DNA from: Escherichia phage Cartapus
Sequence record: NC_070909
DNA length: 33,368 nucleotides
Strand: one strand, 5' to 3'
The translations under genes and the position numbers were made by a program. This document shows, in pieces, positions 1 through 33,368 of this stretch. Under the pieces are notes generated by a model. The model searched no databases and was not told the DNA's origin. It worked only from the letters and a program-made list of their open reading frames with translations. Each line of letters begins with the position of its first letter. Position 1 is the first letter of the stretch.

Positions 1-32
1 AGGCGCATGAAAACCACTACATAAAGCGGGCA

Positions 33-51
33 GGCGTGGCGGGGATACGAG
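33..51. other. cos: cos-like cohesive-end sequence (GGCGTGGCGGGGATACGAG)
   Basis: 19-nt GC-rich motif whose first 13 nt match the 186/P2-type cos end as I recall it (GGCG[T/A]GGCGGGGA...). It sits a short distance upstream of portal gene Q, as in P2. Confidence 0.35.
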
Positions 52-161
52 CGCGCGCTCATGGTTGAATTAATGAAATTATGGTGTTAAATAGGCTAGC
101 TTTTTAAGTCGTGAATATTCAATTTTTCAACTCATTTTTTTCATAGGGAGGAGTAATTGAC

Positions 162-860
162 ATGGTTATGTTAGTGGATGACTGTCCACGATGTGGATCA
201 CAAAAAATAGCGTTTGATGTTAATGGGCTGAATTGCACTAGGGTTTACAATGCATTGGGCGGGGGTAAAACATACGAGTACGAGGTCTATTGTGTTTGCC
301 GAGAGTGTCATAAAACGACAATGTTTCTTTGCAGACCTTTAACGAAAAATAAAACTTTAGATGGCTATAATTGGGAAAGTGGAATATTCGGCTTAAAGGA
401 AGTTGCAGAGGTTGTTAGGCCTATATCACCGGCAGACTTAGCAGTAGAGGAGCCACCAGAGTTCTTACCTGAGCATATCAATAGTGCATATGAGGAAGGG
501 GCGAAATGTTTGGCTATAGGTTGTTATAATGCAGCAGCAACCATGTTTAGGCTTTGCCTTGATTATGCCACAAAAGGACTTCTTCCTGATGGGGAGCAAG
601 GGCCTGCGCAAAAAATAAGGAGAAGCCTAGGGTTAAGAATGGAGTGGTTATTTGATAATCATCTACTGCCTGAAGCTTTAAGGGAACTAGCTGAATGCGT
701 TAAAGATGACGGAAATGATGGAGCGCATGAAGGTATTTTGGATAAAGCTGCTGCTGAGGATCTTGAAGATTTTACCTATCTTTTTTTAGAACGGCTTTAC
801 ACTGAACCTCAACGCCTTATCGAAGCCAAGACAAGGCGTGAACAAAGAAGAAACAAATAA
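162..860 (+). CDS. accessory protein with N-terminal zinc-ribbon (CPRC...CRECH) and C-terminal DUF4145-like region; function unknown
   Basis: ATG at 162 preceded by GGGAGGAG 8 nt upstream. 232-aa ORF convergent with Q, lying in the cos-Q moron slot. The Cys pairs and the C-terminal GAHEG...LERLY-type region recall DUF4145 (an Abi/restriction-associated domain), from memory only. Confidence 0.6.
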   Translation: MVMLVDDCPRCGSQKIAFDVNGLNCTRVYNALGGGKTYEYEVYCVCRECHKTTMFLCRPLTKNKTLDGYNWESGIFGLKEVAEVVRPISPADLAVEEPPEFLPEHINSAYEEGAKCLAIGCYNAAATMFRLCLDYATKGLLPDGEQGPAQKIRRSLGLRMEWLFDNHLLPEALRELAECVKDDGNDGAHEGILDKAAAEDLEDFTYLFLERLYTEPQRLIEAKTRREQRRNK

Positions 861-868
861 GTTCGGAA

Positions 869-1903
869 TTATTCTTCTGAAAGAATATAGGGCGTAAATT
901 TAATCACTTCTTCGCCCAGCCAGTCGTTCAGCTCTTGTAGCCTTTTTTGCAAGGGCGTTAATTCATTACGTACAAATACGCGACTAGCCTTCTCCACATC
1001 CCCAAACCCTCCAACATTATTAGGCATAATCCCCATCATTTGCGGCGGCACGCGGTGCGCAGCCATCATGTCGTCGCGGCTGACATTTTTGATATTCAAA
1101 AACTCATCCTTCGCCGCGACTTCTGACAATGGGATGATCTGAAGCCCGTCTTTTTTGCCGTTAGGCGAGTACATAAACAGGTTGCGGAAGTTGCCTGGAC
1201 CTTTGGCGCTTTTCATCGCATTGCGGAGGTTGTTCACATCCTCCTGGTTTTGCGCGGCATCGGTCATGTACATGATAAAGCCCGCATGACTGCCGTTAAT
1301 GTAATACTTGCGACGGAACAGCGTGGCGGACTCGTTGAGCAGGGCTGACGGAATGGCAGAAAGATAACCGGGCAGGCCGTAGATCTCCTGATTAATATCC
1401 GGTTCCATCAGATGAAAAATGCTGCCTTTCGTGAACTGATACGGCTGGGTTGTCATACCGTATTGCACAAACCAGTAGGTATCCAGGTCTAACCCGCGTC
1501 GGGTGTATTTTGCCAGTGCAGGCTCAAGGGCGATAACTTCACCGAAGCGGTTCGTGCGTTTCTCCAGGTAGGCGTTACCAAAAACCAGATAGTCCTGCAC
1601 AAAACGCGAAAAAGCCTGCTGGCTGAGCAGCGGGTGAGGGATGTAGGTGCTGGTCAGAATGTTGCACTTTACTGCAATCGGGGAACTATGATGCACGGCA
1701 GCGCGGAAGGTGCGCGCCAGTCCGTCAAAGCTGACGGGCGGCTCATACCAGCGGTCCATCTGTACGCATTCCACATAATCCAGCAGTTCTCGGCGGTCCA
1801 GAACAGGAACGGGATCGCCGAAGCTGAATGCTTCGGCTGTAGTTTGACTTTTAAGCTGGATCTGTTTCGTCGCCGCAGCGCGGTTCTTCTTACTCTTTCC
1901 CAT
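869..1903 (-). CDS. Q: portal protein (P2 gpQ-like)
   Basis: 344 aa from the ATG at 1903-1901 (the track ORF begins one codon earlier at a TTG). Length and sequence resemble P2 Q. Start ATG overlaps the stop of P (ATGA). Confidence 0.9.
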   Translation of the reverse strand: MGKSKKNRAAATKQIQLKSQTTAEAFSFGDPVPVLDRRELLDYVECVQMDRWYEPPVSFDGLARTFRAAVHHSSPIAVKCNILTSTYIPHPLLSQQAFSRFVQDYLVFGNAYLEKRTNRFGEVIALEPALAKYTRRGLDLDTYWFVQYGMTTQPYQFTKGSIFHLMEPDINQEIYGLPGYLSAIPSALLNESATLFRRKYYINGSHAGFIMYMTDAAQNQEDVNNLRNAMKSAKGPGNFRNLFMYSPNGKKDGLQIIPLSEVAAKDEFLNIKNVSRDDMMAAHRVPPQMMGIMPNNVGGFGDVEKASRVFVRNELTPLQKRLQELNDWLGEEVIKFTPYILSEE

Positions 1904-3669
1904 CAAAAAATCTCCACAATATTGCTGGTATTGGCGGATTCGCCCTGCAGCGGTTCGTTAAACAGTGCGTGCATCGTTGCCCAGGCCAGATCGGCGTGGC
2001 TGGCTTCTTCGCTGCGGCTGGCTTCATAGGTCGGGCGGTTGCCACTGGCGGTGGTGGCGCGACGGATTGCCATAAAGGACTGCGCTATGTCGGTGTGTCC
2101 GGCGTCAAACTCCAGACGGCGGTGGCTGATAATGTCGTAGGCCTTGAGTACCAGGGCGTTTTTAACGTTGGGGTTGTAGACAAACTCCCGGACGGCAGGA
2201 AAAAACGCTTTCACGTTCTCGTAAACCCCGTGACCAACGCCGGTTGAGTCGATACCGATATAGGTCACGTTGTACTGTTCGGTCAGTTTTTTGATGGCGT
2301 CAGCCTGGGCGCGGAAGTCCATTCCGCGCCACTGGTGACGCTCAAGAATGCGGAACTTACCGCCCGGCACGGCTGGCGGCGCCACCACCACGCATCCGGC
2401 GCTGTCGCCGTTCTGCGTACCTTTCGCCGGGTCATATCCGATCCACACTTCGCGCCAGCCAAACGGGCGCAGGGCCAGTGCATGAAAGTCGGTCCAGACT
2501 TCCCAACTGTCCACCATGCACGCCTGCAGCTCGCTGAGCGGGAACACGGACGCGAGATCGTCCACGAACTCGCACATCAGCAGGTTCTGGTATTCGTCCG
2601 GGCTGTACTCCATGCGCAACTGGTCAAGGTCGAACAGGTTACAGCCGCCGCGCACCGCATCTTCCACGGTGACTATCTGGCGGTACTGCCCGTCTGCGCA
2701 CAGCAGGCCGGGGGCCAGATTGCTGTGGGACAGGTCGATGTCCACCTTATCGGCTTTGTTGCGCCCTCGGTTGAACAGCGCACCGGACCAGAACGGATAA
2801 GCACTGTGTGTCAGGCTGGATGGCGTGGAAAAATAGGTTTGTCGCCATTTTTTGTGAATAGCCATACCGGAAGCCACTTTGCGCAGCTCCTGGAATTTCG
2901 GTATCCAGAAATATTCATCCAGATACAGGTTGCCGTGGTAACTCTGGGCCGTGCGGGCATTGGTGCCGAGGAAGTAAAGCGTGGCCCCGTTAGGAAGCAC
3001 CATCGGATCGCCTTTCAGTTCCACATCCACTTCTTTGGCGAAGTCGATGATGTACTGCTTAAAGACGTGGGCCTGTGCCTTACTGGCGGAAAGGAAAATC
3101 TGGTTACGTCCGGTCAGCAGGGCGTCAATCAGGGCTTCACGGGCAAAGTAAAAGGTCGCGCCGATCTGGCGAGACTTCAGCAGGTTGCGGATGCGATTGG
3201 TTTTTCCGGCTTCCCACCAGTGGCGCTGGTAGTTGAACATGGAGGAATGGAAGATTTCTTCCAGCTTCTCAATCTGTTCATCGGTGAAAACATTCTTTTC
3301 CGGCTGACGGCGCGGCCCTTTGTTGCGGTTGGCGACGTTAGGGTTTAAGTCGGCTTCGTTGCCGCCATTGTTAAACTTGCCGATCCGCGCGTGGCGCTCC
3401 GACTGGCGCGCCAGCAGGTCAATTTCTTTGAAATCTTTCCCTTCTTTGTGCTCCTTCATAATGAGCTGGCAGTAGCGGGCGGCGGTGGTGAGCTGCATCT
3501 GATCCAGCGGCCCATAGTCACCCCACTTGTCGCGTTTTTTCCAGCTGTGAACGGTTGCAACTTTCTCGCCCAGCATTTCAGCAATGCGGGCTACGCGGTA
3601 TCCCTGAAAGTACAGCAGCATGGCCTGCCGACGGGGATCGAGATCTGCGGGTGTCAGTGTGGTGTTCAT
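1903..3669 (-). CDS. P: terminase large (ATPase) subunit (P2 gpP-like)
   Basis: 588-aa ORF, ATG at 3669-3667, immediately upstream of and overlapping Q. Size and position as P2 P. Confidence 0.9.
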   Translation of the reverse strand: MNTTLTPADLDPRRQAMLLYFQGYRVARIAEMLGEKVATVHSWKKRDKWGDYGPLDQMQLTTAARYCQLIMKEHKEGKDFKEIDLLARQSERHARIGKFNNGGNEADLNPNVANRNKGPRRQPEKNVFTDEQIEKLEEIFHSSMFNYQRHWWEAGKTNRIRNLLKSRQIGATFYFAREALIDALLTGRNQIFLSASKAQAHVFKQYIIDFAKEVDVELKGDPMVLPNGATLYFLGTNARTAQSYHGNLYLDEYFWIPKFQELRKVASGMAIHKKWRQTYFSTPSSLTHSAYPFWSGALFNRGRNKADKVDIDLSHSNLAPGLLCADGQYRQIVTVEDAVRGGCNLFDLDQLRMEYSPDEYQNLLMCEFVDDLASVFPLSELQACMVDSWEVWTDFHALALRPFGWREVWIGYDPAKGTQNGDSAGCVVVAPPAVPGGKFRILERHQWRGMDFRAQADAIKKLTEQYNVTYIGIDSTGVGHGVYENVKAFFPAVREFVYNPNVKNALVLKAYDIISHRRLEFDAGHTDIAQSFMAIRRATTASGNRPTYEASRSEEASHADLAWATMHALFNEPLQGESANTSNIVEIF

Positions 3670-3715
3670 GGCACAAACCTACAGCCTTGAATGAAGGCTT
3701 TCCCCGCCTGCGGTT

Positions 3716-3733
3716 TGTGTGGTTGTCGGTACA
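3716..3733. promoter_or_regulatory. TGT-N12-ACA dyad (Ogr-type late-promoter activator site) in the divergent P/O promoter region
   Basis: tgtGTGGTTGTCGGTaca in the P-O intergenic region, roughly 80 nt upstream of the O start. P2 late promoters carry a TGT-N12-ACA element near -55. Confidence 0.4.
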
Positions 3734-3811
3734 AATACCGCGCATTGTTTCACTGCCCCCATCACCGCAACCATAAGGCTCCAGTAAGTTTTTTCTAACG
3801 GAGCACGGCTC

Positions 3812-4645
3812 ATGACAGTGAAAGCAAAGCGTTTTCGCATCGGGGTGGAAGGTGCCACTACCGACGGACGCGAAATCCAGCGTGAATGGCTGGAACAGAT
3901 GGCAGCCAGCTACAACCCGGCGGTGTATACCGCGCTGATTAACCTTGAGCACATTAAGTCTTATCTGCCGGACAGCACGTTTAACCGCTACGGCAAGGTG
4001 ACGGCGCTGTTTGCTGAAGAAATCGCGGAAGGTCCGCTGGCAGGCAAGATGGCACTGTATGCCGACGTTGAGCCAACGGAGTCCCTGGTGGAACTGGTGA
4101 AAAAAGGCCAGAAATTATTCACCTCTATGGAAGTCAGCCCGAAGTTTGCTGATACGGGCAAAGCCTACCTGGTCGGCCTGGCTGCCACTGATGATCCCGC
4201 CAGTCTGGGTACGGAAATGCTGACATTCAGCGCCAGTGCAGCCCATAACCCGCTGGCAAACCGCAAGCAGAATCCTGCCAATCTTTTTACCGCTGCAGAG
4301 GAAACGGTGATCGAACTGGAAGAAATCCAGGAGGACAAGCCGTCCCTGTTTGCCCGCGTCACGGCGCTGTTTACCAAAAAAGAGCAGTCCGATGACGTCC
4401 GGTTCTCTGATGTGCATAAGGCCGTGGAACTGGTCGCCACTGAGCAGCAGAACCTGAGCACGCGCACCGAAAAATCCCTGTCTGAGCAGGAAGAACGCCT
4501 GTCTGAGCTGGAGACTGCTCTGCAGGAGCAGCAAACCGCCTTTAACGAACTGGTGGATAAGCTGAGTCATGAAGACAGCCGCCAGGACTACCGCCAGCGT
4601 GCAACAGGCGGCAACGCCCCCGCTGACACTCTGACCAATTGCTGA
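3812..4645 (+). CDS. O: capsid scaffolding protein (P2 gpO-like)
   Basis: 277-aa ORF, ATG with ACGGAG RBS, divergent from P. Acidic coiled-coil-like C-terminus. Order P-O-N as in P2. Confidence 0.85.
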   Translation: MTVKAKRFRIGVEGATTDGREIQREWLEQMAASYNPAVYTALINLEHIKSYLPDSTFNRYGKVTALFAEEIAEGPLAGKMALYADVEPTESLVELVKKGQKLFTSMEVSPKFADTGKAYLVGLAATDDPASLGTEMLTFSASAAHNPLANRKQNPANLFTAAEETVIELEEIQEDKPSLFARVTALFTKKEQSDDVRFSDVHKAVELVATEQQNLSTRTEKSLSEQEERLSELETALQEQQTAFNELVDKLSHEDSRQDYRQRATGGNAPADTLTNC

Positions 4646-4661
4646 TGGAGCATAAAACCCA

Positions 4662-5720
4662 ATGAAGAAGAATACCCGTTTTGCTTTTAACGCTTACCTG
4701 CAGCAACTGGCGCGTCTGAACGGTGTGGCAGTTGAGGAACTGTCCAGCAAGTTCACCGTAGAGCCGTCTGTGCAGCAGACGCTGGAAGACCAGATCCAGC
4801 AGTCCGCCGCTTTCCTGACGCTGATTAACGTCACGCCAGTGACTGAGCAGTCCGGTCAGCTGCTTGGATTGGGTGTTGGCAGCACCATTGCCGGAACCAC
4901 TGACACCACCGCGAAAGAGCGTGAACCTGTCGATCCGACGCTGATGATCGATGTGGAATACAAATGCGAACAGACCAACTTTGACACGGTGCTGACCTAC
5001 GCGAAGCTGGACCTGTGGGCGAAGTTTCAGGATTTCCAGGTGCGTATCCGTGACGCCATCGTGAAACGCCAGGCACTGGACCGCATCATGATCGGCTTTA
5101 ACGGCGTGAAGCGTGCGAAAACCTCCAACCGTAGCGAAAACCCGCTGCTGCAGGATGTGAACAAAGGCTGGCTGCAGAAAATCCGTGAGGATGCACCGGA
5201 TCACGTCATGGGCAGCACCACCACGGGCGGTGAAACCACACCGGGTGCGGTGAAAGTCGGGAAAGGTGGCGAATATGCCAACCTGGACGCCGTGGTGATG
5301 GATGCGGTCAATGAGCTTATCGACGTGGTCTACCAGGACGATGACGATCTGGTGGTGATTTGCGGTCGTGAGCTGCTGTCTGACAAGTATTTCCCGCTGG
5401 TCAACAAAGAGCAGGAAAACAGTGAAAAACTGGCTGCCGATATGATCATCAGTCAGAAACGCATGGGTGGCCTGCAGGCCGTGCGTGCGCCGTTCTTCCC
5501 GCCGAATGCGCTGCTGATCACCCGTCTGGATAACCTGTCCATTTACTGGCAGGAAGACACCCGCCGCCGTTCGGTTATCGACAACCCGAAACGTGACCGG
5601 ATTGAAAATTTTGAATCCGTTAACGAAGCCTATGTGGTTGAGGACTACCGCTGCGCCGCACTGGTGGAAAACATCCAGATTGGCGACTTCAGCGCCGCCG
5701 CAGCAGAAACCGGAGCGTAA
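4662..5720 (+). CDS. N: major capsid protein precursor (P2 gpN-like)
   Basis: 352-aa ORF directly after O. Size and position match P2 N. Confidence 0.9.
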   Translation: MKKNTRFAFNAYLQQLARLNGVAVEELSSKFTVEPSVQQTLEDQIQQSAAFLTLINVTPVTEQSGQLLGLGVGSTIAGTTDTTAKEREPVDPTLMIDVEYKCEQTNFDTVLTYAKLDLWAKFQDFQVRIRDAIVKRQALDRIMIGFNGVKRAKTSNRSENPLLQDVNKGWLQKIREDAPDHVMGSTTTGGETTPGAVKVGKGGEYANLDAVVMDAVNELIDVVYQDDDDLVVICGRELLSDKYFPLVNKEQENSEKLAADMIISQKRMGGLQAVRAPFFPPNALLITRLDNLSIYWQEDTRRRSVIDNPKRDRIENFESVNEAYVVEDYRCAALVENIQIGDFSAAAAETGA

Positions 5721-5723
5721 ACC

Positions 5724-6374
5724 ATGAGCCTGAGTCCCGCACGGCAGCATCGCCTGCGCGTTCAGGCTGAACAGGCCGCCCGCGAGGGCGGCAGCGTTCG
5801 CCACGCGTCGGGCTATGACCTGATGCTGCTGCAACTGGCAGAAGACCGCCGCCGTCTCAAGGGCGTTCAGTCCACGGTCAAAAAAGCGGAAATCAAGGTG
5901 GAGCTGCTGCCGAAATACGCCGCCTGGGCGGAGGGTGTCCTGGCTGCCGGAGGCGCTCAACAGGATGACGTGCTGATGTACGTGATGCTGTGGCGCATTG
6001 ATGCCGGAGATTATGTCGGAGCGCTGGAGATCGGGCGTCATGCCCTGCGTCATGGCTGGGTGATGCCGCTGGGTAACCGCAACGTGCAGACCGTGCTGGC
6101 AGAGGAAATGGCAGACGCAGCGCAGAGCGCAATGCTTGCCACTACCGGCTTTGATGTCGATCTGCTGCTGCAGACGCTGGAGCTGACAGACGGTCTGGAT
6201 ATGCCGGACCAGTCACGGGCGCGTCTGCATAAAGCGATTGGCGCTGTCCTGAGTGAAAGTAATCCGGCTTCCGCCCTTAATCATCTCAACCATGCGTTAC
6301 AGCTCGATCCCCGCTGTGGCGTGAAAAAAGACAAACAGCAGCTGGAGCGCAGACTGCGCAATGACAGCCGCTGA
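5724..6374 (+). CDS. M: terminase small/endonuclease subunit (P2 gpM-like)
   Basis: 216-aa ORF 3 nt after N. Arg-rich N-terminus. Synteny with P2 M. Confidence 0.8.
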   Translation: MSLSPARQHRLRVQAEQAAREGGSVRHASGYDLMLLQLAEDRRRLKGVQSTVKKAEIKVELLPKYAAWAEGVLAAGGAQQDDVLMYVMLWRIDAGDYVGALEIGRHALRHGWVMPLGNRNVQTVLAEEMADAAQSAMLATTGFDVDLLLQTLELTDGLDMPDQSRARLHKAIGAVLSESNPASALNHLNHALQLDPRCGVKKDKQQLERRLRNDSR

Positions 6375-6469
6375 CAGAACGTGCCCCCGCGCACGGGCGG
6401 CACGGGGTGGCGAAAGGCACTGCCACATCAAAACCCCGTCCACCGCCCTTTATTTCAGGAGAAAGCAGC

Positions 6470-6934
6470 ATGAAGTTTGTTGCGCCAGAACAGGCACCGG
6501 AACAGGCGGAAATCATCAGAAATACGCCGTTCTGGCCTGATGTGGACCTGTCGGAGTTTCGCAGTGTCATGCGCACTGACGGCACGGTGACGCAGCCGCG
6601 TTTAAAGCAGGTTGCGCTGTCGGCAATTTCGGAGGTCAACGCAGAGCTGTATGAGTTTCGCAGACGCCAGCAGATGCTGGGGTATGCCTCGCTGGCAGAA
6701 GTCCCGGCGGAACAACTGGACGGCAAAAGCGAGCGCATTCAGCACTATTTCAACGCGGTTTACTGCTGGGCACGCGCCATGCTCAACGAACGTTACCAGG
6801 ACTATGACGCCACGGCATCCGGTGCGAAGCGAGGCGAGGAACTGGCGGAAGCAAGCGGTGATTTATGGCGTGACGCCCGCTGGGCCATCAGCCGGGTGCA
6901 GGATGCGCCGCACTGCACAGTGGAGCTTATCTGA
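6470..6934 (+). CDS. L: head completion/stabilisation protein (P2 gpL-like)
   Basis: Track ORF 6407-6934. I place the start at the ATG at 6470, preceded by CAGGAGA. Stop overlaps the X start (TGATG). Confidence 0.8.
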   Translation: MKFVAPEQAPEQAEIIRNTPFWPDVDLSEFRSVMRTDGTVTQPRLKQVALSAISEVNAELYEFRRRQQMLGYASLAEVPAEQLDGKSERIQHYFNAVYCWARAMLNERYQDYDATASGAKRGEELAEASGDLWRDARWAISRVQDAPHCTVELI

Positions 6935-22793: not shown

Positions 22794-22817
22794 AACCTGC
22801 TACGGCAGGTTTTTATT
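22794..22817. terminator. hairpin plus T-tract between convergent ogr and the WYL/BRCT gene
   Basis: AACCTGC-TACG-GCAGGTT followed by TTTTATT, 8 nt after the ogr stop. It overlaps the 3-prime end of the minus-strand gene, so it may act in both directions. Confidence 0.6.
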
Positions 22818-23295
22818 CATCTGGGATCTCACCCGTTTCAAGAAAATGTATAAAGCCAGGCTCATCTATGATGATAGTGCCTTTCATCCTGGCTGCCGAT
22901 ACTTTTGATGGGCCTGCATTGTAACCGCAACAGAGCATCTGAAGGTTTTGGGTTACAGATGTTCTTACCGTTAATCCTTGTTCATTCGCCTTATCAACCA
23001 ACCTTTCTTTATCTGCTTTCTTAAATCCGGTGAAACACACATCGAATGTATTTTTTTTCGGACCTGACTGCTTAGTGAGATGTGAGTAGTTTTCGGGGAG
23101 GAATGACGCGCATTCCTGAATGGCTTGTTCTTGTGAATCGTATTGTTTAAGAATGCGGTCTTTTCGGAAGGTTTTTATTCGATCGGTGTTCTTACAAATG
23201 CCCTGTATGTGATTTTCGCTATAACTGATGCTCTGTATTGAGTGAACACCGATACGACCATTTGCATTGATGTAAACAAAGTGAAGTTCTTCCAT
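22813..23295 (-). CDS. small protein with WYL-like N-terminal region and C-terminal BRCT-like domain; function unknown
   Basis: 160-aa ORF, ATG at 23295 with an AAGAGG RBS. C-terminus (DVCFTGF...GLTVRTSVTQNL...GPSK...IIIDEPGFIHFL) resembles the BRCT domain of NAD-dependent ligases. N-terminus (GRIGVHSIQ...IKTFRKDRI) resembles a WYL domain. Both by recalled motifs only. Confidence 0.5.
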   Translation of the reverse strand: MEELHFVYINANGRIGVHSIQSISYSENHIQGICKNTDRIKTFRKDRILKQYDSQEQAIQECASFLPENYSHLTKQSGPKKNTFDVCFTGFKKADKERLVDKANEQGLTVRTSVTQNLQMLCCGYNAGPSKVSAARMKGTIIIDEPGFIHFLETGEIPDE

Positions 23296-23582: not shown

Positions 23583-24788
23583 TCATGGTTTAATATGGGC
23601 ATATACTTGAATTTCATCCATACAAGTTTCGAGTTTATAAAAGTCAGTTAAATTATAGATGTTCAAAATTTCATCATCTATGCTTCCTGTTAGCTCACGA
23701 TTTTTTCTTCTTCGTAGCCTTCTGCTGAGATTCTCTCGATCGGATTGTGCAACTGATTCAGGCACGTACTCAACTGTTTTTAGGACCTGCCAAGATACAG
23801 GCAATGTGAATTTGAAAATTTTCGCTAGATTTGGACAAAATTCATTATTGGCCATCTCCTCGTAACGCACTTTTGGAGGAAGTACCACATTTATTCCTCT
23901 GCTACCTAAGGCATTAGCAGGTAATTTTGTTGAGCGGTAGGCTATACCAACAACATTCTCATTGCTGTTCCGACTGATCCATTGCATCAAAAGATTGGGG
24001 ATAATATATTCTTGTACAAAGGAAGCATTGTCATATTTTTTTAAATAATTGCATGCAATTATCAAAGGCCAAAGTGCTAAATATGAGAGTTTGGTATTGA
24101 AATCATATTTGTTCTTTCTTTTTGACTCTAATATAGATCTCTGTTTATATAAAAAATCAGGTCCTATATTTAGTACCTTTGAGTCATTATTTTTATCGAT
24201 CTTGTAGGCAGATATATATAGCTTATCAAAATCTGGCTTATCCATTTCTCTCCAGCATATATAAAGAGATGTTCCTAAATATAAACAGGGTAGACCAGCA
24301 ACTGAAAATCTCTGTGCTCTAACAAAGTGACGCTGACTGAACGGAATATGAAACATATCTCTTCTTGATGTAAGTGGCGTATCAGATTTTCTAACGCGGA
24401 ATAATGGTTTATCTTCATTACATAAGTCAGAAAGAGGTATGCATATATTTTCAATATGACGAGATATAGTTCGTGGCTCTAGCATACTTTCAAATGAGTC
24501 ATATGCCGACTTAATATCCCCTGATAAAAAACACTCTAAACACGAGACGATTTCTTTCTGCATGATATCTACAGCTCTAAGTCTATTGCGCAAGCGTAAA
24601 CTTAACCTGTTATCATTTTCCTGGATGTAATCTACTAAACAACCCCGGAATTTACTGCATTTTAGAGCGAAGTCATCTATCAAAGTAAGGTTTTTTTCAA
24701 TCTCAATTGGTGGTCGAATACTTGATTTTTTTCTAATAGTGTCAAAAAGATTATTAAGTTCTTCATCGAGTTCTTGTTGAATATGCAT
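23583..24788 (-). CDS. large accessory protein with a RES-domain-like core (possible NAD+-targeting toxin-type fold); function unknown
   Basis: 401-aa AT-rich ORF, 9 nt downstream of the int stop. The central segment ...FRVRKSD...QRFSVAGLPCLYLGTSLYICWRE... parallels the Arg / Tyr-x-x-x-Ser / Glu core of RES toxins (MbcT/ParT type) as recalled. No adjacent antitoxin-like ORF. Confidence 0.5.
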   Translation of the reverse strand: MHIQQELDEELNNLFDTIRKKSSIRPPIEIEKNLTLIDDFALKCSKFRGCLVDYIQENDNRLSLRLRNRLRAVDIMQKEIVSCLECFLSGDIKSAYDSFESMLEPRTISRHIENICIPLSDLCNEDKPLFRVRKSDTPLTSRRDMFHIPFSQRHFVRAQRFSVAGLPCLYLGTSLYICWREMDKPDFDKLYISAYKIDKNNDSKVLNIGPDFLYKQRSILESKRKNKYDFNTKLSYLALWPLIIACNYLKKYDNASFVQEYIIPNLLMQWISRNSNENVVGIAYRSTKLPANALGSRGINVVLPPKVRYEEMANNEFCPNLAKIFKFTLPVSWQVLKTVEYVPESVAQSDRENLSRRLRRRKNRELTGSIDDEILNIYNLTDFYKLETCMDEIQVYAHIKP

Positions 24789-31813: not shown

Positions 31814-32002
31814 ATGCAGGACTATTTTTTGGAGTCTTTGAAGCTCCAGCGCATTGATTTTTTTCTTAAGCTTGTAGCGGCTAGTGAGTGTAGTGATGAA
31901 GAGAAGGGGCTGGCCCTGCAGTGGGTTTCTGAACTGACAGATGAACTCATGGCAAAAATCAGAACCCACGAATACAACCGCTCAATGGATGTCATCAGCT
32001 GA
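31814..32002 (+). CDS. tum: Tum-like SOS-inducible antirepressor (putative)
   Basis: 62-aa ORF with AGGAGGA RBS directly downstream of the LexA box, followed by a DinI-like ORF, as at the phage 186 tum locus. Confidence 0.45.
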   Translation: MQDYFLESLKLQRIDFFLKLVAASECSDEEKGLALQWVSELTDELMAKIRTHEYNRSMDVIS

Positions 32003-32012
32003 GGTGACTTTT

Positions 32013-32246
32013 ATGCGCATTGAAATAATGATCGATAAAGAGCAGAAGATTAGCCAGTCTACCCTGGACGCTCTGGAGTCCGAGCTTTACCGCAACCTGC
32101 AACCCATCTATCCCAAGACAGCTATCCGCATCCGTAAAGGGTCGGCAAACGGCGTTGAGCTGAGTGGCTTAAAGCTTGATGAAGACAAAAAGCGGGTGAT
32201 GGAAATTATGCAGCAGGTTTGGGAAGACGACAGCTGGCTGCACTAA
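32013..32246 (+). CDS. DinI-like protein
   Basis: Track ORF 31941-32246. The ATG at 32013 gives MRIEIMIDKEQKISQSTLDALESELYRNLQ..., closely parallel to E. coli DinI as recalled. 77 aa. Confidence 0.75.
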   Translation: MRIEIMIDKEQKISQSTLDALESELYRNLQPIYPKTAIRIRKGSANGVELSGLKLDEDKKRVMEIMQQVWEDDSWLH

Positions 32247-32319: not shown

Positions 32320-32580
32320 ATGGGTAAAAAAGACAGTAATCACCAGATTATTTATCGGGGCCAGGTGCTGGAACGGTTTACCCCTGGCGGCTGGGTCTTC
32401 TTTCAACGCCCAAAGGAGTGTGGCGGAGGTTTTTGGTTGGGCCGCACCTATGAAGACTGCTTCTGGCTTGAGCTGGAATTCCCCGTTTCGCTATATGACG
32501 GCCTGGAGTTTTTGATGGAAGTCACCAGGGTAGAGCAGAGAAGTGATGAGGTTGACGCGAATTATTCCCTGTTTGATTAA
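32320..32580 (+). CDS. hypothetical protein (accessory, cos-proximal)
   Basis: Track ORF 32269-32580. ATG at 32320 (MGKKDSNHQIIYRGQ...), 86 aa. No domain recognised. Confidence 0.4.
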   Translation: MGKKDSNHQIIYRGQVLERFTPGGWVFFQRPKECGGGFWLGRTYEDCFWLELEFPVSLYDGLEFLMEVTRVEQRSDEVDANYSLFD

Positions 32581-32628: not shown

Positions 32629-33240
32629 ATGGATTTAGTCTTTAAAATTCTGGCTTCGTTGGGTGGGGTGTCTTTTGTTGCATCTGGCATATTTGTTTGG
32701 ATCGGGAAAGTTTATTTAGAAAGATATAAGTCGCGGCTAAACAAAGATATTGCTGAATTTCAATCACAACTGAGTGCAACTAATGAAAGAATAAAGGCTA
32801 AGTTAGACAATTCTGTTTATGTAACGAAAGCGTATTTTGATAAGGAGTTATCAGCATATAGTCTCATTTGGAATTCGATGTTTGAAACCAGAGAAAGCGT
32901 GCTTAAGCTGAGGCCTGCGCTGGATCATTTTGACCCCAACGAACCATTTGAAGAGAGAAAATTTAGAAGGTTGAAAGTTTTTTTCGATGCATTTAATACT
33001 TTTGTTACAAGTGTTGAGTCTAACAAACCGTTCATCTCACCAGAGGTTTATATAATCTTGGACCGTTTCCGGAAGGAATGCCTTTCAGAGTCAATATCGT
33101 TTCAGCATGGCGATCCAGAATTTGACTGGCAAAATTATTGGAAAGAGGCAGAGTTGAACCGTACAACCATCACCAAGCTTTTTGATGAGACGTGTGATGC
33201 AATTCGAGACAGGATGCACACATTAACTGTGGTTACGTAG
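32629..33240 (+). CDS. hypothetical membrane-anchored protein (accessory, cos-proximal moron)
   Basis: 203-aa AT-rich ORF with one N-terminal hydrophobic helix (LVFKILASLGGVSFVASGIFVWIG), then a charged, probably helical region. Followed by a terminator. Confidence 0.5.
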   Translation: MDLVFKILASLGGVSFVASGIFVWIGKVYLERYKSRLNKDIAEFQSQLSATNERIKAKLDNSVYVTKAYFDKELSAYSLIWNSMFETRESVLKLRPALDHFDPNEPFEERKFRRLKVFFDAFNTFVTSVESNKPFISPEVYIILDRFRKECLSESISFQHGDPEFDWQNYWKEAELNRTTITKLFDETCDAIRDRMHTLTVVT

Positions 33241-33330: not shown

Positions 33331-33356
33331 GGCCCGCTAGGAATGGCGGGCTTTTG
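33331..33356 (+). terminator. rho-independent terminator
   Basis: GGCCCGC-TAGGAATG-GCGGGC followed by TTTTGC, about 90 nt after the stop of the 203-aa ORF. Confidence 0.55.
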
Positions 33357-33368
33357 CTTATGTCATGC

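Follow-up and report, generated by a model that had tools for sequence, protein, structure and literature searches.

Introduction

The closest described counterpart of CARTA_1, a gene of Escherichia phage Cartapus (record NC_070909; 33,368 bp, the whole of which was analyzed and is called the window below), is the anti-phage protein PD-T7-4 of Escherichia coli (E. coli). PD-T7-4 was discovered and annotated as ‘Zn finger-HEPN’ by Vassallo et al. (2022, PMC9519451), and the 219-amino acid (aa) protein of E. coli UMB1727 (RRL46918.1; PDB 9Y9C/9Y6U) has since been renamed RAZR, for ring-activated zinc-finger HEPN RNase (Zhang et al., Nature 2026, PMC13017515). RAZR combines a Cys4 zinc-finger domain with DUF4145, and its residues R146 and H154 are essential. 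The protein is inactive as linear oligomers and becomes active as a 24-mer ring when wrapped around ring proteins of the infecting phage, triggers including the portals of T7, T3 and SECphi18 and the Erf-like Gp77 of SECphi27. Active RAZR cleaves single-stranded RNA (ssRNA) non-specifically, which blocks translation and results in abortive infection. Specificity is determined by the zinc-finger domain, which varies more than any other region; the 14-residue linker is conserved and needed for oligomerization, and D179, D180, and R184 mediate dimer-dimer contacts (PMC13017515).

DUF4145 has been assigned to the HEPN RNase superfamily, with fusions to zinc ribbons and to type I restriction-modification or restriction endonuclease proteins among its architectures, and HEPN domains are common toxins in toxin-antitoxin systems (Anantharaman 2013, PMC3710099). 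The domain also occurs in the BREX-associated protein BxaP (PMC10799925) and in the anti-plasmid protein Ishtar1 (bioRxiv 10.64898/2026.07.06.735840). BxaP, Ishtar1, and the restriction-type fusions share with the CARTA_1 protein the use of DUF4145 as a HEPN-type effector in conflict systems; in BxaP and Ishtar1, however, DUF4145 is N-terminal and fused to a HEAT-like or beta/alpha domain, without a zinc ribbon. A further validated E. coli defense protein with HEPN and zinc-finger domains, DS-38 (WP_001313577.1), was found with DefensePredictor, and its authors consider that it probably acts differently from PD-T7-4 (PMC13092281). The CARTA_1 protein is not DS-38, which has 366 aa, an N-terminal HEPN domain, and multiple C-terminal zinc fingers.

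CARTA_1 itself resides in a prophage. Cartapus is the name given by Misson et al. (2023) to a 33,368-bp prophage of E. coli LF82, and the window represents its complete cos-to-cos genome, which is of the P2 family and Fels-2-like. Rousset et al. (2022, PMC9122126) described a hotspot between gpA and gpQ of P2-like prophages, the occupants of which include old and tin and about 169 curated systems, and the same locus, called ‘hotspot #1’ elsewhere, carries many defense systems (Vassallo et al. 2022, PMC9519451). The CARTA_1 protein is already catalogued there, that is, WP_000245245 is listed in Table S5A of Rousset et al. as ‘DUF4145’, in the arrangement hypothetical+DinI+hypothetical+hypothetical+DUF4145 (PMC9122126), and hence it is not a new find as hotspot cargo; it was absent from the tested systems given in the searched supplementary files of that study. 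Here, we compare the gene, its family, and its locus with RAZR and the other systems above, starting from a first-pass annotation of the window that had proposed a stand-alone defense gene between cos and the portal gene Q.

Results

A zinc-ribbon and DUF4145 protein related to RAZR

CARTA_1 (LF82_788; WP_000245245.1) is the first gene of Cartapus, an ATG-initiated open reading frame (ORF) of 232 codons at 162–860 on the plus strand, exactly as first annotated. The ribosome-binding site that had been called strong is present as well, as the Shine-Dalgarno sequence GGGAGGAG at 146–153 (+), 8 nt before the ATG at 162, and the homologues begin at an equivalent M-x-x-L-V-x-D-C-P-R-C. The gene region is identical to that of the E. 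coli LF82 chromosome. The homologues fall into at least 603 clusters at 90% identity, with lengths of about 230 aa almost throughout, and 927 clusters at 50% identity (E≤1e-3; 137 with E≤1e-30), and CARTA_1 is thus no chance ORF.

Both domains proposed for the protein from its letters hold up. The N-terminal domain, residues 1–60 (162–341, +), has the Cys4-type motif C8-P-R-C11 and C46-R-E-C49-H50 (cysteine codons at 183–185, 192–194, 297–299, and 306–308) and is the presumed sensor. The four cysteines are invariant in the alignments of all 36 diverse homologues and all 73 viral-contig homologues; a Pfam zinc-ribbon model matching the protein was not found, and the ribbon assignment rests on this motif, not on a fold. 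The C-terminal domain, residues 97–232 (450–857, +), contains a match to the Pfam DUF4145 model at residues 114–203 (PF13643, E=4.5e-7, 30.3 bits compared to a gathering cut-off of 23.1) and is a putative HEPN-like RNase domain. Between the two lies a hypervariable region, residues 61–96 (342–449, +), which has the lowest identity of the three: among 61 non-identical viral homologues, mean identity is 47% for residues 1–60, 34% for 61–96, and 70% for 97–232. An NCBIfam model for the protein was not found, and PHROGs assigned the whole protein to phrog_1305 (E=9.5e-53), labeled ‘DNA binding protein’. The only available helical prediction is a low-confidence single-sequence model (mean predicted local distance difference test score, pLDDT, of 39.5).

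The conserved residues of the C-terminal domain include a putative active-site loop, K181-D-D-G-N-D-G-A-H189 (702–728, +), which is invariant in the P2-associated clade; the longer string C-[VI]-K-D-D-G-N-D-G-A-H-E-G is practically fixed in the clade of P2-like phages. R130, R159, N185, and H189 are invariant in the homologue alignments, and T214, E215, and R218 show little or no variation in the 36 diverse homologues. All members of the P2-associated clade have a lysine at position 181, and more distant homologues, those of non-P2 viral contigs included, have an arginine; of the 252 among 266 retrieved proteins in which the motif could be located, 165 have K at this position, 73 R, 6 Q, and 3 H, i.e., K or R in 238 of the 252. 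The protein has a K-x7-H motif at this site, compared to the Rx4-6H of the HEPN superfamily (Pfam clan KNTase_C, CL0291).

The sole match of the protein in PADLOC was to PD-T7-4, and a weak one (26.1 bits, E=1.2e-6; residues 36–200 against positions 39–165 of a 211-position model). The similarity extends over the family, with 81 of 111 diverse representatives matching the PD-T7-4 model (best E=3.4e-11) and practically nothing else, and the matches of family members are colinear with the model from the first CxxC through the end of the HEPN domain. Further, the two proteins are similar in size (219 aa in RAZR, 232 aa here), each is a single protein with an N-terminal Cys4 zinc ribbon followed by a C-terminal DUF4145/HEPN domain, and each has a basic residue and a histidine eight positions apart in a GN-containing loop (R146/H154 in RAZR, K181/H189 here). 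In both families a variable N-terminal sensor is joined to a conserved effector, and both are carried on mobile elements. Compared to the R146...H154 pair of RAZR, the CARTA_1 protein departs at the arginine, the change to lysine being conservative, and keeps the histidine and the spacing. The pair is shifted by 35 residues relative to RAZR numbering, and the shift maps to the inter-domain region; with the same offset, T214, E215, and R218 would fall beside the dimer-dimer contact residues D179, D180, and R184 of RAZR, which is suggestive only.

These profile scores indicate homology at the level of the superfamily and not membership in the RAZR family. Searches of PDB sequences with the protein, the family profile, and a distant member returned only tetratricopeptide repeat-like noise, and the RAZR chain was not found. 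RAZR was likewise not found by tblastn of phage and plasmid records, nor among the 266 retrieved proteins, the best of which had four of the 14 residues of a fingerprint taken from the RAZR paper (V21, R29, Y31, R35, T41, E43, AGN68-70, R146, H154, D179, D180, and R184). Judged from these sequence comparisons, the CARTA_1 protein belongs to a sister clade of RAZR rather than being RAZR in the strict sense, and it probably works like RAZR. The mechanism, which the first-pass annotation had given as unknown, is in this respect out of date as a statement, since a distant homologue of the same architecture had its mechanism described in 2026.

An autonomous gene at the portal side of a defense hotspot

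In the circular or prophage form of the genome the gene order is gpA, orf62, DinI, orf86, orf203, cos, and CARTA_1, followed by Q (869–1903, –) on the opposite strand. CARTA_1 is convergent with Q, as first annotated, with the two stop codons 8 bp apart, and the slot between cos and Q corresponds to the gpA-gpQ locus of Rousset et al. and Vassallo et al., in agreement with its initial reading as a known hotspot for defense genes. The slot is bounded on the right by the portal gene and on the left by a conserved cos-flanking block (1–64), which was delimited by DNA matches and an upstream alignment: the first 58–64 nt are 94–98% identical to P2-family phages (Fels-2 and phages of Klebsiella, Salmonella, and E. 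coli), and similarity then ends, near position 64 in the upstream alignment. The composition of the cargo differs from that of its surroundings, with 28.7% GC upstream of the gene (61–161), 41.8% GC and 31.8% GC at third codon positions (GC3) in CARTA_1, 51.0% GC in the whole window, and 60.9% GC3 in the portal gene, which fits a horizontally acquired gene. Like other occupants of the P2 hotspot, CARTA_1 is a short single system of AT-rich, foreign composition that is variably present. A difference lies in its position: CARTA_1 is located on the Q side of cos, and DinI, orf86, and orf203 represent separate cargo on the gpA side.

We also observed that the DNA matches to the portal genes of relatives start 39–122 nt inside the 3' end of Q (window 869–990, –), so that the last 13–40 codons of Q diverge along with the cargo. 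This sequence pattern suggests that recombination at the hotspot has its boundary within the portal C-terminus.

That the slot holds neither old nor tin was borne out. The only Pfam and PADLOC matches of the protein are DUF4145 and PD-T7-4, so that a homologue of Old (ABC ATPase and TOPRIM) or Tin can be rejected, and the remaining ORFs of the hotspot were also without matches to defense models in these databases. The slot is variably occupied, as had been suspected, and the gene is not a core gene: among 5426 complete E. coli genomes, CARTA_1 is present in 43 and a related portal in 1245. In strain N47 the slot holds an AIPR-family (abortive infection) protein, with orf86 and orf203 retained; in isolate 07-4299 it is filled by a TIGR04255 protein, an XRE protein, and a hypothetical protein, and in record CP019275 by a 1.7-kb frameshifted ORF.

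Assemblies that encode the exact CARTA_1 protein number in the thousands and come from many hosts and sources; in all of them the gene is 8 bp from Q. What lies across cos varies, i.e., orf86 and orf203, a 239-aa protein, nothing, or an insertion sequence (IS) element with a 433-aa protein. The left neighbors thus change while CARTA_1 stays at Q, which supports a one-gene module and agrees with its description as a stand-alone gene. We considered orf203 and orf86 as partners of CARTA_1 and rejected both, because they are found apart from CARTA_1 and vice versa: orf203 is present without the DUF4145 gene in N47 and is absent or replaced in other prophages that carry the DUF4145 gene.

Family distribution and association with the portal gene

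Scanning IMG/VR with an alignment of the family gave 76 loci. In 47 of these a convergent P2-type portal gene is located 14–192 bp downstream, all but one within 14–48 bp. The paired homologues reach down to 49% identity, where the portals are 62–68% identical and gpA only 32–35%; that is, the pairing persists in divergent loci and is therefore old within P2-like phages. Protein divergence tracks portal divergence, with rho of 0.85 for the zinc-ribbon half and 0.90 for the HEPN half (n=14). The zinc-ribbon half thus tracks the portal no more strongly than the HEPN half does, giving no sign of specific co-evolution with the portal, and a special co-variation between zinc ribbon and portal is unsupported.

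Homologues below about 50% identity are found in other mobile elements, beside Mu-like Mor/GemA, Zot, integrases, methylases, Abi_alpha, and ResIII. A CARTA_1 homologue was not found in the P2, 186, and Fels-2-type records of the phage collection. The members of phrog_1305 and the homologues in Shiga toxin (Stx) phages (gp20 of POCJ13) and in Burkholderia phage phi644-2 are related over their full length at 25–32% identity and have the same Cys4 and HEPN layout; they differ in having the canonical arginine (VRIDANKAVH or VRLDGNDALH) and shorter linkers. The label ‘DNA binding protein’ that these homologues carry is an untested annotation.

Shigella phage POCJ13 (gp20, 4040–4714 of the retrieved stretch) and Escherichia phage PhiR5_2 each encode such a homologue, a zinc-ribbon and HEPN protein of 224 aa at 25–26% identity. 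Its gene is read from the opposite strand and lies between the replication genes and ninB, in the nin region of these Stx-type lambdoid phages. It is adjoined by HigB and HigA genes and by a Ren-like exclusion gene, and these nin-region genes probably represent another small defense cluster.

Expression in the lysogen

The first-pass annotation had described an AT-rich, promoter-like region upstream of the gene. This description is borne out by the AT-richness (see the GC content of 61–161 above) and by RNA sequencing (RNA-seq) of lysogens; a strict sigma-70 consensus scan of 1–161 found no promoter on the plus strand. Reading the sequence, we find a weak candidate promoter at 65–93 (+), with TTGAAT and TAAATA separated by 17 nt and a TG two bases upstream of the –10 element, which lies just past the conserved cos block and keeps its position in the closest alleles. 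On the other side of cos, a strong terminator-like hairpin (GGCCCGC...GCGGGC followed by TTTTGCTT; 33331–33357, +; RNAfold dG –22.9 kcal/mol) is conserved in related loci, although it escapes a rule-based terminator scan. With the genome circular or integrated, this hairpin separates orf203 from cos and would insulate CARTA_1 from upstream transcription, which argues that the gene has its own promoter.

Expression values were taken from the LF82 RNA-seq of Misson et al. (2023, S1 Table), given as log2(fpkm+5), where fpkm is fragments per kilobase per million, with two values per condition. LF82_788 is at 4.65 and 4.71 in stationary lysogeny broth (LB), at 7.0 and 7.2 in the B1 samples, and at 7.6 and 7.6 in the B6 samples, which are probably cultures in Dulbecco's modified Eagle medium (DMEM) serving as medium controls; in THP-1 macrophages it reaches 9.2 and 9.2 at 1 h (MB1) and 9.5 and 9.6 at 6 h (MB6). 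The portal, terminase, capsid, and lysis genes as well as gpA remain at 2.3–3.1 in all conditions (Misson et al. 2023). CARTA_1 is therefore transcribed while the late genes are silent; its expression in the lysogen does not depend on the lytic program, as expected of a defense moron.

Neighboring and other accessory genes

Among the cargo genes on the gpA side of cos, orf203 (LF82_789; 32629–33240, +) is one of the two Cartapus ‘morons’ of Misson et al. (2023), and it is expressed in lysogens, rising in parallel with CARTA_1. Pfam and PADLOC matches were not found for orf203, nor for orf86 (LF82_790; 32320–32580, +), and orf203 may be another cargo gene of the hotspot, independent of CARTA_1. 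In some prophages with the DUF4145 gene, orf86 and orf203 are replaced by the 239-aa protein mentioned above (5970–6690, +, in two loci), which has only a faint HNH match and represents alternative cargo on this side of cos. The orf62 gene (LF82_791) and the DinI-family gene (31814–32246, +) are near background in LB and in B1 and B6 and reach log2 values of 8–11 in macrophages only, a pattern that would suit SOS control, as in the tum region of phage 186. Since CARTA_1 and orf203 are already up in B1 and B6 and orf62 and DinI are not, the two pairs appear to be differently regulated.

Two further accessory ORFs flank attP. The first, orf160 (LF82_783; 22813–23295, –), annotated as a ‘putative exonuclease’, is the top-expressed Cartapus gene in the examined part of the expression table. 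Its matches are limited to BRCT, below threshold (E=9e-4), and, weakly, to PDC-S48 in PADLOC (E=1.7e-7). The second, orf401 (23583–24788, –), is located between attP and the integrase gene and had no matches.

Discussion

We favor, with moderate confidence, the interpretation that CARTA_1 is a one-gene, prophage-borne abortive-infection module of the zinc-ribbon and DUF4145 (HEPN) class, from a sister clade of RAZR/PD-T7-4, that acts in a RAZR-like manner; the defense-gene interpretation of the first-pass annotation is to this extent supported by the comparisons above. Under this hypothesis, the protein would be inactive in the lysogen until a heterologous phage infects, at which point the fast-evolving N-terminal zinc-ribbon region would bind a phage protein that, by analogy with RAZR, may be a large ring-former such as a portal or an Erf-like recombinase. 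Binding would reposition the paired HEPN domains, and the K181/H189 site would then cleave ssRNA non-specifically (mRNA, tRNA, and rRNA), so that translation halts, the infected cell releases no phage, and the lysogen population, and hence the prophage, is protected. From the analogy we infer that the protein binds zinc, that K181/H189 give it RNase activity, that a phage protein activates it through its N-terminal region, that it assembles on a ring, and that the infection aborts.

It is important to note that several observations weigh against this interpretation. The profile similarity to PD-T7-4 is weak, at 26 bits for the CARTA_1 protein; the catalytic arginine is replaced by a lysine that is invariant in the P2-associated clade, and the mapping of K181 onto R146 rests on motif spacing and on the coordinates of hidden Markov model matches. 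Compared to RAZR, the region between the domains has about 35 additional residues and is hypervariable, whereas the RAZR linker is short. A report of a phenotype for the protein or its clade was not found in the searchable literature, and expression in LB is only about 4-fold above the local background, as estimated from the published table, which is below the 5-fold cut-off of Misson et al. (2023) and accounts for CARTA_1 not being scored as a moron there. Finally, the protein would be present at the time the dodecameric portal of the prophage itself is made, and would act against its own carrier unless its specificity excludes gpQ; since the lysogen makes the protein before its own portal, a RAZR-like sensor must discriminate against gpQ.

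Alternatively, the protein might be a HEPN RNase defense protein whose activation is unlike that of RAZR, with the ribbon and linker sensing either a nucleic acid or a phage protein that forms no ring, and with a simple dimer as the acting form in place of a ring-templated polymer. The weak model similarity, the lysine, and the long, variable linker (that of RAZR being short and conserved) all point in this direction, and there is precedent in DS-38, also of HEPN and zinc-finger type and argued to work unlike PD-T7-4 (PMC13092281), as well as in BxaP and Ishtar1, which pair DUF4145 with unrelated partner domains. However, the two domains come in the order of PD-T7-4 and are colinear with it, a variable sensor is coupled to a conserved effector as in RAZR, and T214, E215, and R218 would fall next to the contact residues of RAZR, a point that is suggestive at most; hence, we regard this alternative as unlikely. 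An RNase encoded by a lysogen-expressed moron could also serve host or prophage physiology, through control of stress or persistence in macrophages or toxin-like addiction. In macrophages the transcript is about 30-fold above its level in LB, LF82 belongs to the adherent-invasive strains and has been studied for its survival in macrophages, and HEPN domains are common as toxins of toxin-antitoxin systems (PMC3710099). Yet an antitoxin-like partner was not found adjacent to CARTA_1, whose neighbors vary, the gene is spread over thousands of assemblies that differ in host and source, its homologues are cargo of diverse phages of many taxa, and the fast-evolving sensor region is typical of an arms race, while the induction is already seen in the B1 and B6 samples, if these are read as DMEM controls, and is common to orf203. 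We therefore consider a physiological role to be quite improbable.

We give still less credence to the possibility that CARTA_1 encodes a housekeeping or regulatory protein of the phage acting near cos and the portal, e.g., a DNA-binding zinc-finger packaging factor. Such a role would be in line with the label of phrog_1305, with the location beside cos and Q in 47 of the 76 viral loci, divergent P2-like phages included, and with divergence that tracks that of the portal, but it is difficult to reconcile with the absence of the gene from about 97% of the E. coli prophages with a related portal and from the P2, 186, and Fels-2-type records, and with the unrelated defense-type genes that occupy its place in sibling prophages. 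The loop with the putative active-site histidine is invariant, expression is in the lysogen and not with the late genes, homologues occur in non-P2 elements, and the label, as noted above, is an untested annotation; a housekeeping role thus seems very improbable.

A more specific version of the RAZR-like hypothesis would make the association with the portal gene functional, the two genes being convergent and only 8–48 bp apart even in divergent P2-like phages. The protein might be a sensor of portal rings directed against the portals of competing phages, other P2-like phages included, that either fails to recognize the resident gpQ or is restrained by it; late transcripts of Q running on into the gene could keep it silent while the phage itself grows lytically, and the invariant lysine together with the long, variable linker would mark a mechanistically distinct branch of ring-activated RNases. 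We consider this version to be quite doubtful.

In conclusion, CARTA_1 is, judging from sequence comparison, very probably a divergent variant of a defense class with a known mechanism, located in an already described hotspot. If the protein is inactive, it represents one further uncharacterized gene of the hotspot. If it is active, the principle of RAZR, an RNase switched on around a ring protein of the phage, extends to a much larger, phage-borne sister clade of 927 clusters at 50% identity, with a lysine in place of the canonical HEPN arginine and a longer sensor region, and a defined system is added to the inventory of the P2 hotspot in E. coli and its relatives, which bears on the prediction of host range for phage therapy. 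The gene resides in LF82, an adherent-invasive strain associated with Crohn's disease, and is strongly transcribed inside macrophages. It also raises a question of self versus non-self recognition, since a suicide RNase that possibly senses portals would be expressed by a prophage that builds a portal of its own.

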